Source: Bacteroidia bacterium
GTDB taxonomy: Bacteria > Bacteroidota > Bacteroidia > NS11-12g > UBA9320
Assembly: GCA_020053795.1 (NCBI GenBank)
Contig: JAGVMN010000005.1
Location: 18,907 to 82,906 of the forward strand
DNA length: 64,000 bases
Direction of reading: 5' to 3'
The translations under genes were made by a program, and so were the position numbers. Under the pieces are notes generated by a model. The model ran no database searches and was not told the DNA's origin. It was given only the letters and a program-made list of their open reading frames with translations. How positions within the stretch are numbered: the first letter of the stretch is position 1; every line of letters starts with the position of its first letter. Shown here in pieces: positions 39,173-47,692 of this stretch.

Positions 39173-40381
39173 TCAGTCACGAATCAGAGCTTGCAACAAT
39201 TTCTCAAACTCTTTTGACTGTTCAATATATTTCAAACCAGTTCCCGGGCCGTTGAATCCTGTATGAACGCCAATGACTTCATGTTTTCCGTTCAAGAAAA
39301 TCGTTGTGGGAAAGGATAGAATTTCGCTCAGGAAAGGCAGCAATTTCGAGGCGTCTCCTTTTGAAGCTGTCCCCGCCAGTATCATTTCGTAAGGAACCTT
39401 CATGTTTTTTCTGACCTTATTAATTCGTTGCAAGTGAACCTCTGTATCAGCCACACGTTCAAAACACAGGGCCACAAACTGCAAACCCTTTCTATGGTAT
39501 TCGTCGTAGATGGAAGTCAGGTAGCGGGTTTCGTCCATGCAATTGGGGCACCAGCTTCCCATGATTTGAATAACCACGGGTTTGCCTTTATAAGGGGCAG
39601 TGTCCAAATTGAAAACATTGCCATTTGGTTGCGGGATAGCTAGCTTTACCGGGCCTTCGGAAACAGGTTTTGTAAGTTCAAATGAACTGGTCAATCGGGC
39701 GGAATCATTTCTGTTTCCCTTCCAAACCGTTTTAAAATGCGTTCCGGAATAGAAGATTCCTTCAATGGTGTCACCAACCAATGTTCCTTCAAACAAGAAG
39801 GCATGAGAACCATCGAAACAGGAAAGTTTGAAATGTGTTTCATCTGTAAAACCGCCTTGGAGGTATCGGTAATCTCCCGTTTCTGTGAGAAAGGTTCCGG
39901 TGATTCCATTTGCTGTTTGAACAAACTCCCCAATGGCAGGATAGGCATTGCTATCGGTATCAAAAACACAAGCCCAGCGACCTTGAATACTTCGTGTACC
40001 GGCAAAATGGTTTTTTCGTTCTCCCTTTGACAAAGATAACGGGATTCGATAAGTTCCCTGTCGGCTGTTGTCTTGAAAATATCCAACAAAGTTGCCACCC
40101 GTCATTTTAGTTAAAACTATTTTTGAATCAAAAACAGGGTGTTCGACAATCAAAGTGTCACCACGCCAAACATTTGGTGTCAATGCCAATCGTTCTGATG
40201 CATTTACGAGCCAACAGTAAACGGAATCATCCTTTTGTACCATTTCAAATCCGAAGTCAATCGTTTTCCCTTCGGAAAATATCAGGCCGCCTTGATATAT
40301 CTCAAATGATTTTGTTCTATTCATATTAGAGATGGATAAGTAGGAGACGATAATGAACAAATAAAAAAAAGCCTTATTCAT
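39173..40381 (-). CDS. TlpA-like thiol-disulfide oxidoreductase (thioredoxin fold) with an N-terminal domain of unknown function
   Basis: Signal peptide. C-terminal about 150 aa with the active site GSWCPNC and an AhpC/TSA-TlpA pattern (KPVVIQIMGSWCPNCMDE...VALCFE). Confidence 0.75.
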   Translation of the reverse strand: MNKAFFYLFIIVSYLSISNMNRTKSFEIYQGGLIFSEGKTIDFGFEMVQKDDSVYCWLVNASERLALTPNVWRGDTLIVEHPVFDSKIVLTKMTGGNFVGYFQDNSRQGTYRIPLSLSKGERKNHFAGTRSIQGRWACVFDTDSNAYPAIGEFVQTANGITGTFLTETGDYRYLQGGFTDETHFKLSCFDGSHAFLFEGTLVGDTIEGIFYSGTHFKTVWKGNRNDSARLTSSFELTKPVSEGPVKLAIPQPNGNVFNLDTAPYKGKPVVIQIMGSWCPNCMDETRYLTSIYDEYHRKGLQFVALCFERVADTEVHLQRINKVRKNMKVPYEMILAGTASKGDASKLLPFLSEILSFPTTIFLNGKHEVIGVHTGFNGPGTGLKYIEQSKEFEKLLQALIRD

Positions 40382-40450
40382 GATGCGAAGATAAGTGAAC
40401 TTTGTCCGAAAGATGTGAAAACAGTCAGTGTTAGTCTATCAATGATTTTG

Positions 40451-41416
40451 TCATGGATTATTCAATGCTTCTATACGCAACCAAAACTTCTTAGTTGCAG
40501 TTTTTATTAATTCAGATTCGGGAAATATTTCGAATGCCAAACTGTAGGCCCTTTCTGCCTCTGCATACATTTTATAGTTTTCCCATGAAATAGCCCTGAG
40601 CAGGAAATAATATTCGGTTTCCGATTCTTTCAACTCCTTCTCAATGATTCTCAAATCGGCATTCAATGAATCTATTGTCAATGAATCAGCAAATGTGAAT
40701 GTATTAAGGCCATTTGCTTTGTAACCTGCTCGGGCAATACTCCAGGCGTAGGTTTTACTTCTATCAAAGGCTTTTATATTTGTGCAACCAAACCAGTTTG
40801 GTAACGAAATTTCACCCTCCATCAGAGAATCACGACTACACAAGATGCTATTTTGCCCTGAAACTATTTCCCCCAACATTATTGAATAAGGCAAAAACTC
40901 TTTATGTTTCCAGCGAAAGTTAACCTGCTTACCCGGTATAACCTCTCCATTTGCAGGAAATACCATTTCCATTTTGCCGCCCCGGCTAATCGCTGTAACG
41001 CCTTCTTTGGGTTTTATGTTGACCACATTGTAAAGACCGGAATACAGCCTTGACCATGTTCCGGCATCCCTGTCGAACTTGATGTCCTTTATCTGGCTGA
41101 TCTTTTTACCCTGAAGGGTTTTGAATCCGTTTTGTTTGATCAGTGTGACTGATGCTCCGGATTCCAGTTTGATCCAATAGCTATCCTTTAACTTCTGCCG
41201 CTCTGTAAGGGCAATCCATTTTTTCTCATTTTTATAGAATGCCCTCCCTTTGACTTTGCAGGCATAAATTTCCTGAGCGGTGGTAGAAGGAATGAACCCT
41301 TCGACTATGGATTCGACAGGCTCACCGGCCACGCTCAGGGCAAGAAATGAAAGAATGATCTGTATTGCAGTGAGCCACACGTTCTGTTTTCCTGTATTCA
41401 AATTAGTCCTATTCAT
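40451..41416 (-). CDS. Secreted protein with a FecR-like N-terminal region and a TPR-like C-terminus (function unknown)
   Basis: Signal/anchor WLTAIQIILSFLALSVAG. KVKGRAFY...WIALTERQKLKDSYWIKLESGASVTLIKQNGFKTLQG fits the FecR-domain pattern. C-terminus YYFLLRAISWENYKMYAEAERAYSLAFEI. Overlaps the CHASE2 gene by 8 nt. Confidence 0.45.
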   Translation of the reverse strand: MNRTNLNTGKQNVWLTAIQIILSFLALSVAGEPVESIVEGFIPSTTAQEIYACKVKGRAFYKNEKKWIALTERQKLKDSYWIKLESGASVTLIKQNGFKTLQGKKISQIKDIKFDRDAGTWSRLYSGLYNVVNIKPKEGVTAISRGGKMEMVFPANGEVIPGKQVNFRWKHKEFLPYSIMLGEIVSGQNSILCSRDSLMEGEISLPNWFGCTNIKAFDRSKTYAWSIARAGYKANGLNTFTFADSLTIDSLNADLRIIEKELKESETEYYFLLRAISWENYKMYAEAERAYSLAFEIFPESELIKTATKKFWLRIEALNNP

Positions 41417-42596
41417 GATCTGTGCTTTTCGGTTTTCGTTTTATGATTCTTGAAAGCCAATTTGTAAACGGTTCATAAGAAGGCAACAAGAGTCCGCTAA
41501 AAAAAATCGGGATGATGAACTCTGTAGGTTCCAGTTTTATTCTAAAATTTTCCATGAGTAAAGCACAAATGATCATGCTCAATGGTGCCAGAAATACCAA
41601 CAAAATGAAATCGAGCAACAAGTGATAATAGTTGTGGCTTTGGTGGATTCTGATGAGGAGAAACATGAAAAGGAAACAACTCATAAAAATCCAGAATATG
41701 TTATAAGGCAGAGGTTTCATGTAGTCATTGGTGATGATCATAGAAATAATTTGAGATAAATATTCAATTCCATTCATATCTGGTAATGACCTTCCGATGT
41801 AAAGGTTCAGTGGGGTGAAATGCTTGTCTTCCAGACTCCATTCATTAAAACCGCCCAGCAATACGATCTTGTTTCTAAATATATCCGGATTATTTGGTAT
41901 AGTGTCAAAAACCAGGTAACGCGGCAGGTTGGATACGCCTTTCCGTAAATTGACCAGTTTGCTTTCACCGGCGGCGGCACCAAGAGTTTTCAACTGTTTT
42001 CGACCATAAGACAGGCTGATGACTTTAACAGCAAATGAGGTGTCCGGTTTTTCTCCTTCTGTTTTGATGAATGGCTCAAAATGCCTTTTGGTTTTAAGAA
42101 GACTCTCCTGTTTTAGAAAACCGATATGGTAAGACCCGCTTCCTTCATTCTGAAACTGCATATCCTGATAAAAAGGTAAATTCATGGTTCGGGATTCCTC
42201 CTCCGTACCATGCAGAGCCGCCAAAACAATATTGTCTTTATATCGGTTCAAAACCCGAATCAACCTGATGTTTTGGGTATCTTCAAGTGCCTTTCCGAAT
42301 ATGATGTCTATGCCGATAACCTTCGGGCTGAAGCTTTCCAGTTTTTCAATTTTTGATGCAATATTATTCCGGTCATCATTGTAGCAATTGACAATGACAA
42401 TATTGGTGTCGGGGTTGGCAGATTTGTGTACATAGGCAAAAATCAAATCCGACATTTCGTAATCTTCAATTTTGTTCCTCATGGGGTTCAGGATTTCGAC
42501 CTTGTGCAGCAAAGAACCCAACAATTTTCCTGCAATAGCCAATATCGCCAAACAAAACACAGTGGCCAAAAAGGATGTTTTAATTTTTGTTATCAT
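41409..42596 (-). CDS. Stand-alone CHASE2 domain membrane protein (no output domain)
   Basis: N-terminal TM, then an extracytoplasmic region with CHASE2-like motifs (NIVIVNCYNDDR, KVIGIDIIFGKA, NIVLAAL, FRNKIVLLGG...EDKHFTPLN, MNGIEYLSQIISMI), then three C-terminal TM helices. The ORF ends about 25 aa after the last helix. Confidence 0.75.
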   Translation of the reverse strand: MITKIKTSFLATVFCLAILAIAGKLLGSLLHKVEILNPMRNKIEDYEMSDLIFAYVHKSANPDTNIVIVNCYNDDRNNIASKIEKLESFSPKVIGIDIIFGKALEDTQNIRLIRVLNRYKDNIVLAALHGTEEESRTMNLPFYQDMQFQNEGSGSYHIGFLKQESLLKTKRHFEPFIKTEGEKPDTSFAVKVISLSYGRKQLKTLGAAAGESKLVNLRKGVSNLPRYLVFDTIPNNPDIFRNKIVLLGGFNEWSLEDKHFTPLNLYIGRSLPDMNGIEYLSQIISMIITNDYMKPLPYNIFWIFMSCFLFMFLLIRIHQSHNYYHLLLDFILLVFLAPLSMIICALLMENFRIKLEPTEFIIPIFFSGLLLPSYEPFTNWLSRIIKRKPKSTDHE

Positions 42597-42901: not shown

Positions 42902-42944
42902 TGACTATTAGTCAGTGATTTCATTGAAAAAGTTTTTATATTTG
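42902..42944 (+). promoter_or_regulatory. Candidate promoter of the Cys-repeat lipoprotein: a perfect palindrome plus a Bacteroidota-type -7 box
   Basis: TGACTA-T-TAGTCA at 42902-42914. TATATTTG (TAnnTTTG consensus) at 42937-42944, 38 nt before the ATG. Confidence 0.35.
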
Positions 42945-42981: not shown

Positions 42982-43773
42982 ATGAAAAAAATTGTATTAG
43001 CCATCTTGTTCGCATCGGGGCTGTTATTTCTGGGTTCGGGTTGTAATGACCGTAGAGACATTGAAGATATTCTTAAATGGCTAAAAAACAAGGACAATAA
43101 GAAATACGATTGTCCTCAATTAAAAGTAAATTTTAAAGAAGCGTGTAAAACGGCAGAAGGGAAAGCAGGGATTGTAACTCAGGATTGCAAATGTACACCA
43201 CCTGTCACTCAGAGGTTTGATTGTCCTCAGTTGAAACTCAATTACAAGGATGCCTGTAAAACAACAGACGGCAAACCGGGAATTGTGACTCAGGACTGCA
43301 AATGTCAGCCAACAAACAATACTAAATTTGATTGCCCTGACTTAAAAATGAATTTTAATGATCCCTGCAAAACGTCTAATGGTGTAGGGAAAATTGATAA
43401 GAATTGCAAATGTGTGGTATCTAATACGCAGAAATATGACTGTCCTGAATTGAAACTCAATTTCAAAGATGCTTGTAAAACTGCTGATGGCAAACCTGGA
43501 TTCATTAACGGTGACTGCAAATGCCAGCCTTCAACAGATGTTAAATACGATTGTCCTGAGTTAAAGTTGAATTTCAAGGATGCTTGCAAAACAAGTACCG
43601 GTCAGATGGGAATCATTGATAAAAATTGTAAATGTCAGCCGGCAAATACTCAAAAGTATGATTGCCCTGAATTAAAACTGAATTTCAAAGATGCCTGTAC
43701 CATAACCACCAATGGGGTTATGATGAAAGGCTTTATAGATGAAAACTGCAAATGCGTTCCTGTTAACAGATAA
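42982..43773 (+). CDS. Lipoprotein composed of six tandem 36-39-aa four-cysteine repeats (unassigned family)
   Basis: Lipobox LFLGSGC. Repeats K[YF]DCPxLKxN[FY]xxxC...G....[DN]CKC run from aa 41 to the C-terminus. Own terminator. Confidence 0.85.
   Translation: MKKIVLAILFASGLLFLGSGCNDRRDIEDILKWLKNKDNKKYDCPQLKVNFKEACKTAEGKAGIVTQDCKCTPPVTQRFDCPQLKLNYKDACKTTDGKPGIVTQDCKCQPTNNTKFDCPDLKMNFNDPCKTSNGVGKIDKNCKCVVSNTQKYDCPELKLNFKDACKTADGKPGFINGDCKCQPSTDVKYDCPELKLNFKDACKTSTGQMGIIDKNCKCQPANTQKYDCPELKLNFKDACTITTNGVMMKGFIDENCKCVPVNR
43102..43770 (+). repeat. Six coding tandem repeats, period about 111 nt
   Basis: Repeat starts at 43102, 43213, 43324, 43432, 43543 and 43654 (aa 41, 78, 115, 151, 188, 225). 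Confidence 0.9.
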
Positions 43774-43803
43774 TTCGTATTTGTCAGAATATAAAACTTT
43801 GGA

Positions 43804-43832
43804 AAAAGGTTGGTGCTTCACCAACCTTTTTT
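43804..43832 (+). terminator. Rho-independent terminator
   Basis: aaaaggttggtg-ctt-caccaacctttt, with core GC stem 43808-43815 / 43819-43826 and a T-tract to 43832. Confidence 0.85.
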
Positions 43833-43917
43833 CATTGACGGCTTTTCATTTTTTGTTTGTTCACATTTGCTGAAACAAATTAATTCTTCCTATTTTTGTT
43901 ATATAAATTCTCGCGAA

Positions 43918-44169
43918 ATGAAAAAGATTCTGATTGCCTTGTTATTTCTCACCGCAAATTTTCAAACGGTTTTTGCCGGTACTTCCGGGATAAATGGAGA
44001 GTATATATTTTACCTTATACCGCTCGCCATCCTTTCATTCATCTGGGTGGGTTATGAGATAAAGGCCAGAATAATAGCCAAAAGGATTGCCAGGCTGGAA
44101 GCCAGGATGGCGGCAGAAGGGGCGAATGACTCTCCGGATTCAGATGGTATTGAGTCTTCCGAGATTTGA
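43918..44169 (+). CDS. Small secreted/membrane protein (hypothetical)
   Basis: The ATG at 43918 gives MKKILIALLFLTANFQTVFA, then one TM (YIFYLIPLAILSFIWVGY) and a charged tail. The longer track ORF reads through the terminator. Confidence 0.45.
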   Translation: MKKILIALLFLTANFQTVFAGTSGINGEYIFYLIPLAILSFIWVGYEIKARIIAKRIARLEARMAAEGANDSPDSDGIESSEI

Positions 44170-45423: not shown

Positions 45424-45533
45424 GGGGCAAAAGTAGCGGGTCTCTCCGATTATTTGTTACTTTGCGTTTTAATCGAAGTACTCTCATCCTAAATCCCGAT
45501 TCATTTGTTAATAGCCATTATAAACCGATCAAA

Positions 45534-46556
45534 ATGAGTATAAGAGAACAATTAAATGAACTGTTGAAAACCAGAATACTTGTTCTGGATGGTGCCATGG
45601 GTACTATGATACAGCAATATAAATTGAGCGAAGAACAATACCGCGGTGAGCGTTTCAAGGATTTCAGACACCCATTGAAAGGCAACAACGATTTACTTGT
45701 ATTATCTCAACCGGCCATCATTTCCGAAATTCACGCGGCCTACCTTGAGGCAGGTTCTGATATTCTTGAAACCAATACCTTCAATGCCAACCGGATTTCA
45801 ATGGCAGATTATGCTATGGAAGATTTGGTCTATGAAATGAATGTAGAAGCCGCAAGACTGGCGAAGAAGCAAGCGGAAATATTTAATAAAAAAGACCCTT
45901 CAAAACCCAGATTTGTAGCAGGCTCTGTTGGCCCGACGAATAAATCGGCATCACTTTCTCCTGATGTAAACAACCCGGGTTACAGATCGGTAACTTTTGA
46001 TGATATGGTTGAGATTTATTCCGAACAGGCCCGTGCATTGCTGGATGGAGGTTGCGATATGATTCTGGTTGAAACTGTTTTTGATACCTTGAATTGCAAA
46101 GCAGCTCTTTTCGCTATTATGCAGTTGGAAGAAGAGTTAGGTCGCGAAATAATTACCATGGTTTCAGGAACCATTGCAGATGCCAGTGGCAGAACCCTGA
46201 GCGGTCAGACAACAGAAGCTTTTTGGAATTCTATTTCACATGCCAACCTATTTAGTGTTGGTTTAAATTGTGCTTTGGGAGCAGCCCAATTGAGGCCATA
46301 CATAGAGGAATTGTCCAGAGTCGCATGGTGTTATGTGAGTGCCCACCCTAATGCCGGATTGCCAAACGAGTTTGGAGAATACGACCAGAGTGCCGCAGAA
46401 ATGGCAGCAGTGATTGAGGACTTTGCTATAAGCGGATTTTTGAATATTGTCGGTGGTTGTTGTGGTTCAACGCCCGAACATATAAGAGCCATTGCCAAAG
46501 TTGTTGAAAATTGTCCCCCAAGAGAGGTTCCGGTTCTAAGTTATTTCACAGAATGA
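45534..46556 (+). CDS. Homocysteine S-methyltransferase domain protein (MetH N-terminal Hcy-binding module only)
   Basis: The ATG at 45534 gives [27 protein letters not shown]. Zn ligand context GLNCALG and [11 protein letters not shown]. Ends at the interdomain linker ([14 protein letters not shown]). Confidence 0.85.
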
Positions 46557-47692
46557 ATATAGGCGTTGTATGTTACCCAACTTATGGAGGTAGTGGTGTG
46601 GTGGCTACTGAACTTGGAAAAGCCTTGGGTCAGAAGGGACATAAAATACATTTCATCTCTTACGACCAACCCGCCCGACTCGATTTTTTCAATGAAAACC
46701 TTTTTTACCACGAGGTTTCGGTTTCTAAATACCCGCTGTTTCGCTATCCGCCTTATGAGATTGCCCTGGCAAGTAAAATTGTTGACATCGTTCAATTTGC
46801 CAATCTGGATTTGCTTCATGTACATTACGCCATCCCACATGCTGCTGCCGCCATAATGGCAAGAAATATCCTGTTGAAAAGAGGCATCTATATTCCGGTT
46901 GTAACTACCCTTCATGGAACAGACATTACACTGGTGGGCAAAGACCCGACTTATGAGCCGGTAGTAACATATTCTATCAATGAATCGGACGCTGTTACGA
47001 CGGTTTCCGAAAGTCTTAAAAGAGAGACCAAAGAGCATTTCCCAATCGAAAACGACATAACAGTTATCCCAAATTTTATTGACTTTGAAAGGTTTAGCAA
47101 AACTCCAAAGGAGCATTTCAAACTGGCTATCGCCCCGAATGGGGAGCATATAGTGATTCACACTTCAAATTTCAGAAAAGTGAAAAGGGTGGAGGATGTT
47201 TTAAAGGTTTTTCATTTGATTCGGAAAGAGGTACCTGCAAAATTGTTGTTGGTCGGAGACGGCCCTGAACGCTTCAATATGGAAACGCTTTGTCGTAAGT
47301 TGGATCTTTTCGATTCAGTAACCTTTCTTGGCAAACAGGATGCAGTAGAAGAAATTTTGTCGGTCGGTGATCTTTTTTTAATGACCTCTGAAACGGAGAG
47401 TTTTGGTTTGGCGGCTCTTGAGGCGATGGCATGTGAGGTACCCGTTATAAGTACCAACACTGGTGGATTACCCGAACTCAACATCAATGGGGTTTCCGGT
47501 TTTACAAGTGATTTAGGGGATGTTAAGGACATGGCTAAAAATGCACTGAGTATTCTGCAAGGGAATTTGAAATTGTTCAAATTACAGGCCTACAATCATG
47601 CCCGTAAATTCGACATCGAAACGATCATGCCGGCTTATGAGAATTTGTATTTCAAAACCATTGAAACAGCAGCTAAAAGAAAGCGAACTTAA
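46553..47692 (+). CDS. bshA: N-acetyl-alpha-D-glucosaminyl L-malate synthase (bacillithiol biosynthesis glycosyltransferase)
   Basis: [37 protein letters not shown] and the GT4 C-terminal [31 protein letters not shown] overlap with the upstream gene. Confidence 0.85.

Follow-up and report, generated by a model that had tools for sequence, protein, structure and literature searches.

A lysine-rich putative lipoprotein with six four-cysteine repeats and the Bacteroidota module family to which it belongs

The repeat gene and its product

We analysed a gene for a putative lipoprotein with six tandem four-cysteine repeats, found in a stretch of 64,000 nucleotides from a Bacteroidia bacterium (contig JAGVMN010000005.1; the whole of this stretch is referred to below as the window). 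The open reading frame (ORF) at 42982..43773 (+) encodes 263 amino acids (aa), its start codon being the first one available past the upstream stop. Its N-terminus, MKKIVLAILFASGLLFLGSG, is followed by Cys21, a short tether and six repeat units which, when the protein is split at the DCP motif, measure 37, 37, 36, 37, 37 and 39 aa in order (Table 1). The cysteine spacing in each unit is C-x10-C-x12-16-C-x-C, with 13, 13, 12, 13, 13 and 16 residues in the successive loops between the second and third cysteines. Of the 25 cysteines of the protein, Cys21 is one and the other 24 lie within the six repeats, the last of them 5 residues before the C-terminal end. The protein has a net charge of +12, and its units are joined by linkers of 4-6 residues (QPSTDV and QPANTQ, for example). 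A preliminary description, made from the letters of the window without database searches, had reported the ORF, the signal ending at Cys21, the six repeats of 36-39 aa and their 24 cysteines, and we reproduced all of these details. No further copy of the repeat unit was found elsewhere in the 64-kb window. An antisense ORF of 94 aa lies inside the repeat gene (43305-43589, -), and antisense ORFs likewise occur in 13 of the 18 related loci; we rejected it as a gene, and regard it as a by-product of the Lys/Asp/Asn-rich codon composition.

Table 1 Features of the repeat gene, its flanks and its relatives
Feature	Coordinates	Strand	Basis
Coding sequence of the 263-aa repeat protein (putative lipoprotein), stop codon included	42982..43773	+	ORF, translation; relatives dN/dS 0.02-0.09
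Predicted signal peptide aa 1-20 (MKK + hydrophobic helix) and lipobox-like LGSG before Cys21	42982..43044	+	Sequence, AlphaFold helix aa 2-19
Tether aa 22-40 (NDRRDIEDILKWLKNKDNK), predicted amphipathic helix aa 24-37	43045..43101	+	AlphaFold, relatives
Repeat unit 1, aa 41-77	43102..43212	+	
Repeat unit 2, aa 78-114	43213..43323	+	
Repeat unit 3, aa 115-150, shortest Cys2-Cys3 loop (12 residues)	43324..43431	+	
Repeat unit 4, aa 151-187	43432..43542	+	
Repeat unit 5, aa 188-224	43543..43653	+	
Repeat unit 6, aa 225-263, longest Cys2-Cys3 loop (16 residues)	43654..43770	+	
Palindrome TGACTA-T-TAGTCA (perfect 6+1+6), 80 nt before ATG	42902..42914	+	Sequence
Bacteroidota-type -7 promoter box TATATTTG (TAnnTTTG), 45 nt before ATG	42937..42944	+	Motif search
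Intrinsic-terminator-like hairpin: 16-bp stem AAAAAGGTTGGTG / CACCAACCTTTTT, 3-nt loop, T-run	43800..43834	+	Folding
Three-cysteine short units	P0017 505-526; P0078 243-266, 608-631; P0110 460-485; others		
CxxCH/Cu2_monoox_C proteins	L009 3971-5491, L018 3920-5449, L004 1-1299, L006 1-1496	-	
CxxCH/Cu2_monoox_C proteins, continued	L007 2261-3622, L008 2280-3641, L010 590-2044	-	

The N-terminus has the basic n-region (MKK) and the hydrophobic h-region (IVLAILFASGLLFLGSG) looked for in a lipoprotein signal. We compared its lipobox, L-G-S-G-C, with the pattern [LVI][ASTVI][GAS]C, in which the cysteine at +1 is invariant. The residues at -1 (G) and -2 (S) fit, while -3 is Gly and a Leu stands at -4. 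The cysteine that closes the h-region is kept in all 18 related genes, several of which have canonical boxes such as LTAC or LSAC, and this conservation supports the lipoprotein signal that had been proposed from the window protein.

At the DNA level the repeats are weakly periodic, with 71% matches at a period of 111 and 75% at a period of 219 (Tandem Repeats Finder). Any two units are 58-72% identical in nucleotides and 47-72% in amino acids. The preliminary description had called for a substitution comparison among the repeats, and in Nei-Gojobori proportions the synonymous differences (pS) reached 0.5-1.0, which is saturated, against 0.16-0.31 for the nonsynonymous differences (pN). The 15-aa core shared by units 4-6, KYDCPELKLNFKDAC, was said to vary at synonymous positions alone, and the codon table confirms that all its DNA differences are of this kind. 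At positions where two units have the identical residue, 177 of 331 pairs also agree in the codon; from the codon usage of the window 148 +/- 10 such pairs are expected, and from the gene's own usage 172. Because the observed same-codon use lies near expectation, no DNA similarity is left between the units beyond that given by the peptide and the codon bias. Saturated synonymous sites and a conserved peptide together therefore indicate that the units are old duplicates held by selection on the peptide. We also considered selection for synonymous divergence as a way to avoid recombination, and rejected it, as same-codon use is at or slightly above expectation and not below it.

Comparison of related gene pairs across genomes gave ratios of nonsynonymous to synonymous substitution rates (dN/dS) of 0.02-0.09. 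The window gene is under purifying selection, and is a real, constrained gene. The within-gene pS and pN, the codon counts and the dN/dS of the relatives all bear out the initial view that selection on the peptide, and not recent duplication, explains the likeness of the repeats.

The four-cysteine module across Bacteroidota

An exhaustive HMMER search of 1.84 billion cluster representatives returned 222 sequences at E<=1e-3, of which 124 reached E<=1e-10 and 17 reached E<=1e-30, and all 222 carry the four-cysteine unit. The best phmmer E value to other family members was 2e-65, and tblastn to 17 genome loci gave E values of 1e-31 to 1e-57. The repeat is not unique to this gene, since at least 222 clusters carry the module; nor is it absent from the relatives, as these representatives demonstrate. 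The four-cysteine DCP repeat family, as we call it, was defined in this analysis and is not a curated family.

A consensus taken from 150 diverse units reads xxDCPxLxxNxGDxCx(7-15)GxxxxxCxC. In these 150 units the four cysteines are invariant, and D3 and D13 are found in at least 90%. A position profile built on 679 units has N10 in 86-100% and P5, L7 and G23 in most. Among the 777 units detected by a hidden Markov model (HMM) of the unit, 719 have all four cysteines. All six window units fit C-x10-C-x9-20-C-x-C together with D3, P5, L7, N10, D13 and G23. We also observed 39 HMM-detected units that have no N-terminal DCP segment and keep three cysteines (GDxCDDGD...CxC; examples in Table 1); these may represent a shorter module, related to the full unit, in type IX secretion cargo.

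The family falls into proteins of two sizes. Small members (100-500 aa) consist of a lipoprotein-type N-terminus and almost solely of units, and account for 83 of the approximately 150 representatives listed (~55%). Long members (600-2300 aa) have a type IX sorting domain in 36 of 46 cases, 30 of them Por_Secre_tail and 6 CHU_C, and their units occur either in extended arrays or singly amid PPC, PKD, GEVED and Ig-like domains. The family is confined to secreted or putatively lipid-anchored proteins, and the module is therefore an extracytoplasmic building block of Bacteroidota, widespread in secreted surface proteins.

The number of units within a protein is not fixed. Clusters formed at 90% identity hold variants with two, three and four units, which indicates that unit number changes over time; the six units of the window protein are all old. 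Units within one protein have a similarity of 0.75, compared with 0.70 to the best units in other species. In the clusters of P0001 and P0019, for instance, proteins of 112, 150 and 188 aa and of 116 and 154 aa, respectively, are found together at 90% identity. The P0001 cluster is represented on dozens of contigs. At least three paralogues, including a tandem pair, are found in one environmental genome (L005; L013 2-358, 519-1295; L012). In P0002 (L001 3792-4331) the third unit stops after KFDCPDMKVNFG and continues as unrelated sequence that overlaps the next gene, and this break suggests either a frameshift or a misassembled metagenome contig.

The window protein belongs to a lysine-rich subfamily. 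We scanned genomes with 12 lysine-rich double units, a search that samples this subfamily alone, and found 17 loci, all in environmental genomes of Bacteroidota (among them Flavobacteriales, Bacteroidia, Chitinophagaceae and Sphingobacteriia) that had been sampled from estuaries, sludge and further waters. One of the related loci, L017, lies in the complete genome OX044357.1. The encoded proteins share a signal peptide, the cysteine, a near-invariant C-[KN]-D, a charged amphipathic helix with the motif D-[IF]-x-x-[ILF]-[IL]-K-x-x-K, and 3-6 units. Lysine makes up 15% of the subfamily units, those of the window included, as opposed to 0.4% in the rest of the family, and for units of 33 residues the mean net charge is ~0 as opposed to -7. 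Conserved lysines are found at unit positions 1, 8, 12, 16 and 21, the one at position 12 standing where the acidic members have a glycine. A loop K-T-x-D-G-K takes the place of the D-D-G-[DN] of the other members, which is like a calcium site. Thrombospondin type 3-like calcium loops (DxDxDG) were looked for in the window units and not found; K-T-x-[DN]-G-K follows the second cysteine there. The acidic members (units from P0005-P0151) have a D-D-G-[DN]...N-D loop resembling a calcium site, and their composition is extreme.

These acidic relatives, whether cargo (P0008, P0024, P0073) or lipoproteins (P0005, P0006), nevertheless have the same unit, with its invariant cysteines and tandem layout, and many of them share the lipoprotein N-terminus of the window protein. 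They differ from it in their near absence of lysine, their strongly negative charge and their DDGD..ND loop. Judged from these compositions, the normally hyper-acidic, lysine-free surface predicted for the unit is replaced by conserved lysines in the subfamily.

AlphaFold2 modelled units 1-2 from 120 aligned double units with a predicted local distance difference test score (pLDDT) of 91.7, and the full protein, from 57 aligned relatives, with a pLDDT of 89.2 and a predicted template modelling score (pTM) of 0.37. The full-length model has two helices, at aa 2-19 and aa 24-37, and then six units, each built from three short strands. Within a modelled unit there are single-residue bridges at Cys1 and at position 9, and strands around Cys2, around G-x-[IV] and around C-x-C. 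High pLDDT combined with low pTM implies well-defined beads with an undefined mutual orientation. Each unit is thus confidently modelled as a three-stranded beta mini-domain. We infer that two disulfides would close each unit, 12 in all. Paired loss of cysteines was uninformative about their pairing, as a cysteine is almost never lost and the recurrent variant is the N-terminally truncated three-cysteine unit.

The repeat had not been assignable to any named domain, and our searches support this. In Pfam and NCBIfam, neither the window protein nor 120 diverse double units nor the units of the long relatives found a match that rose above noise, and sequence and profile searches of the PDB returned 0 matches even at E<=10. 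AlphaFold modelling followed by Foldseek had been suggested at the outset, and the confident model of the unit found no significant fold match: against the PDB the best E values were 0.65 for two units and 7.7e-3 for the full length, with probability <=0.23 and template modelling (TM) score <=0.13, and against BFVD the best E value was 0.15. The non-significant Foldseek matches included TcdB CROPs, LytA choline-binding repeats, glucansucrase repeats, WW domains and fibronectin type I. Hence there is no confident match to a characterised repeat family in Pfam, NCBIfam, PDB or BFVD, and our literature searches gave no description of the four-cysteine repeat.

Flanking signals and neighbouring genes

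The palindrome, the -7 box and the downstream terminator that had been noticed around the gene are all present (Table 1). Of the 18 related loci, 6 have a box comparable to the -7 box, between -25 and -45. The palindrome may be an operator. It is not conserved upstream of the orthologues in the related loci and is unique to the window, and we therefore rejected a conserved upstream operator. The terminator-like hairpin begins 26 nt past the stop codon and has a folding free energy (dG) of -24.6 kcal/mol (z -5.2; 0 of 200 shuffles as stable); it was overlooked by a simple terminator scan and revealed by folding. Both the hairpin and the comparison of neighbourhoods support the earlier view of a stand-alone gene with its own terminator. 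A survey of the gene neighbours of the relatives, which the preliminary description had proposed, found no operon partner common to all loci. We rejected a conserved operon or partner gene, as the Cu-monooxygenase-like and Redoxin neighbours are limited to subsets of the loci.

In the window itself, the neighbours are housekeeping genes with no evident functional link to the repeat gene. Downstream lie an 83-aa membrane-protein ORF, an L-2-hydroxyglutarate oxidase, a MetH-type methyltransferase domain, BshA and an MntR-like repressor. The 83-aa ORF (43918-44169, +), just past the terminator, combines a signal-like N-terminus with one more hydrophobic stretch and an acidic tail; no family matches it, and other loci do not keep it beside the repeat gene. 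At 45462-47692 (+) a stand-alone homocysteine S-methyltransferase domain, which matches just residues 6-340 of MetH, is followed by BshA, the glycosyltransferase of bacillithiol synthesis, whose ORF overlaps that of the methyltransferase by 46 nt. The closest genome seen, that of L004, shares this methyltransferase and BshA pair at 65-72% identity. Upstream, a divergent set of three genes (39173-42596, -) encodes a CHASE2-domain membrane protein, in which no output domain was detected, a protein of 321 aa that matches no family, and a protein of 402 aa (39173-40381, -) with a C-terminal ResA-like thioredoxin (Redoxin) domain, 2.6 kb upstream of the repeat gene. No tRNA genes and no Rfam families at the gathering threshold were found in the whole 64 kb.

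Other neighbours recur among the related loci. In 7 of the 18, a protein of 450-510 aa with an N-terminal CxxCH motif and a Cu2_monoox_C domain is encoded 0.2-4 kb upstream (Table 1). These proteins form two groups with a mutual identity of ~30%, and none is encoded beside the window gene. Of those scanned for a type IX sorting domain, L009 and L018 have one, and L007, which belongs to the other group, has none. In five syntenic loci (L001 4328-4852 (-), L006, L007, L010 and L015) a gene for a 174-aa Redoxin/AhpC-TSA thiol-disulfide oxidoreductase lies convergent and directly downstream, followed by a gene for a 1157-aa histidine kinase. The Redoxin neighbours may indicate a link to disulfide formation, or may simply reflect shared synteny.

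Membrane side, possible partners and known systems

We consider it fairly probable that the window protein is exported, lipid-anchored and disulfide-bonded, and that it serves on the outer membrane as a structural or binding array with no enzymatic role. Export would go through the Sec pathway, and its signal suggests that signal peptidase II could cleave before Cys21, which, once acylated, would anchor the protein in the outer membrane. The short amphipathic helix of aa 24-37 would then lie next to the anchor. Beyond it, six cores of ~33 residues on their short linkers, each a mini-domain that might be locked by two disulfides, would form flexible beads on a string, several nanometres long. 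This array probably faces outward, where its conserved lysines could contact anionic partners, and candidates for these are lipopolysaccharide, polysaccharides, other acidic surface proteins and particles. The preliminary description had proposed a disulfide-stabilised modular envelope or surface protein, and this is consistent both with the occurrence of the module in type IX cargo and lipoproteins and with the confident AlphaFold models. Metal binding, which it gave as an alternative, gains no support from our analysis and is not refuted by it.

The side of the membrane hinges on the residues that follow the anchor. In Capnocytophaga, the export signal that was tested is K-(D/E)2 at +3 to +5 (C-X-K-(D/E)2), D/E is absent from +3 of the surface lipoproteins, and K-D-D directly after the cysteine worked poorly; the signals of Bacteroides and Flavobacterium, SDDDD and SDDFE, have D at +3 (Lauber et al. 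2016; PMC5080379). Many family lipoproteins fit C-x-K-(D/E)2 and have an acidic tether: among the representatives listed, 27 of 83 have K at +3, and 54 of 83 have at least two D/E at +2 to +6. The window protein reads C-N-D-R-R-D-I-E-D, in which +3 and +6 are acidic but no two acidic residues are adjacent from +3 to +6. The start of its tether, C-N-D-R-R-D, is therefore an imperfect likeness of a lipoprotein export signal. Like the Bacteroidota surface lipoproteins, it has an N-terminal cysteine, here a putative anchor, and acidic residues that come after a polar or basic one, but it differs from them in having no two acidic residues running at +3 to +6 (PMC5080379). In contrast to the acidic type IX cargo, it has no type IX sorting domain (neither Por_Secre_tail / TIGR04183 nor CHU_C / TIGR04131 was found in Pfam and NCBIfam searches), and thus it is not type IX secretion cargo.

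A number of points weigh against an outward-facing, ligand-binding lipoprotein array. The lipobox is atypical at -3, where it has Gly. N-D-R-R-D after Cys21 matches neither K-(D/E)2 nor SDDDD nor SDDFE, and because this signal is imperfect, surface exposure is uncertain and a topology facing the periplasm is possible; we regard exposure at the surface as only slightly more likely than a periplasmic orientation. The four invariant cysteines could in principle bind metal, the proposal of an anionic ligand comes from charge alone, and the public names of the relatives are all 'hypothetical protein'.

One alternative is an outer-membrane lipoprotein that faces the periplasm, with the bead array spanning this compartment and contacting peptidoglycan or anionic lipid heads, as a tether or spacer. 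The window protein and its subfamily have no canonical export signal, C-[KN]-D is near-invariant among them, and both the absence of D/E at +3 in the Capnocytophaga surface lipoproteins and the poor performance of K-D-D there (PMC5080379) would agree with retention on the inner side. So would the conserved amphipathic helix, specific to the subfamily, which stands in place of the acidic tether of the other family lipoproteins, and the inversion of charge that separates the subfamily from the clearly extracellular acidic members. Nevertheless, the module otherwise occurs in type IX cargo and in lipoproteins with acidic tethers like export signals (the 54 of 83 above), C-N-D or C-K-D-D may still function, given the D at +3 in SDDDD and SDDFE, and no peptidoglycan-binding motif was detected with Pfam or NCBIfam. 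On balance we think such a tether or spacer unlikely.

The cysteines could instead serve an envelope metal-binding protein, a buffer or chaperone with six sites in which the four cysteines of each unit coordinate Zn, Cu or another metal. Their invariance in each unit would be in keeping with this, as would the secreted CxxCH and Cu2_monoox_C protein encoded upstream in 7 of the 18 related loci, single family members with MopE-type or CopC copper-related domains, and the MntR-like regulator 4 kb downstream in the window. However, Cys4 metal sites typically have CxxC knuckles, which the C-x10-C...C-x-C spacing does not provide, and the units would sit in an oxidising compartment. AlphaFold gives a confident fold of the unit without a ligand, neither the window nor most of the loci have the copper-enzyme neighbour, and no metal-binding family in Pfam matches the units. 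We judge metal binding to be improbable. A polyprotein precursor, cut into six cationic, disulfide-stabilised, defensin-like peptides, might also be read from lysine-rich units of ~37 aa with four cysteines, and a few family units gave weak, non-significant Pfam matches to beta-defensin and scorpion-toxin models (E>=0.008). A lipid anchor would argue against release, however, the linkers QPSTDV and QPANTQ have no processing sites, the net charge per unit is just ~0 to +2, and the module serves as a hyper-acidic stalk element in giant secretion cargo. We rejected such an antimicrobial polyprotein, which is highly improbable, on its anchor, linkers and family context.

A bolder reading can be imagined, in which the lysine-rich lipoprotein would be a docking strip on the outer membrane that holds hyper-acidic, lysine-free type IX arrays of the same fold, or anionic lipopolysaccharide. 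This is a joint claim, as it also takes the four-cysteine unit to be an unrecognised fold family and a main stalk module of Bacteroidota surface proteins, with the lysine-rich subfamily as its charge-inverted counterpart, and we consider it a long shot. If true, it would amount to docking by electrostatic complementarity between modules of the same fold.

The module is found in hundreds of clusters of surface and secreted proteins of Bacteroidota and is absent from Pfam, NCBIfam and the PDB, so its definition could help to annotate the type IX cargo and lipoproteins of aquatic Bacteroidota better. It would also provide a compact disulfide scaffold, fully inverted in surface charge in one subfamily, as a natural experiment in the re-purposing of scaffolds. 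With its borderline export signal, the window protein offers a simple test case for the rules of lipoprotein sorting.

Short tandem modules of comparable kind are known from other proteins. EGF-like modules contain a C-x-C step, and these and fibronectin type I modules are likewise beta-rich, disulfide-locked, tandem extracellular modules of 30-45 aa; the resemblance is one of analogy only, with no significant sequence or fold match in Pfam, PDB or Foldseek. In Gram-positive surface proteins, the choline-binding and cell-wall-binding repeats of LytA, TcdB CROPs and glucansucrases also form tandem arrays of short beta-hairpins that bind ligands, and were the top Foldseek matches of the full model, without significance (E 0.008-0.1, TM ~0.1). 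In contrast to the window units, however, these repeats are ~20 aa long, have no cysteines and build a solenoid, and Pfam gave no match between them and the window protein. Among bacterial repeats, the Myxococcus cysteine-rich repeat, which we take to be extracytoplasmic and of unassigned function, is similar in being tandem, short and rich in cysteine. This repeat (DUF4215, TIGR02232) is described as a short tandem bacterial repeat in surface proteins (10.1101/2023.03.06.531300). Its cysteine pattern is different, and neither model matched the window protein at E<=10, any of the 120 double units or the long family members. Taken together, these comparisons place the four-cysteine DCP repeat in a familiar kind of structure, the short disulfide-rich tandem modules of bacterial envelope proteins. 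What is new is the domain family, which is uncurated, and its distinctive lysine-rich subfamily; the kind of system is not.

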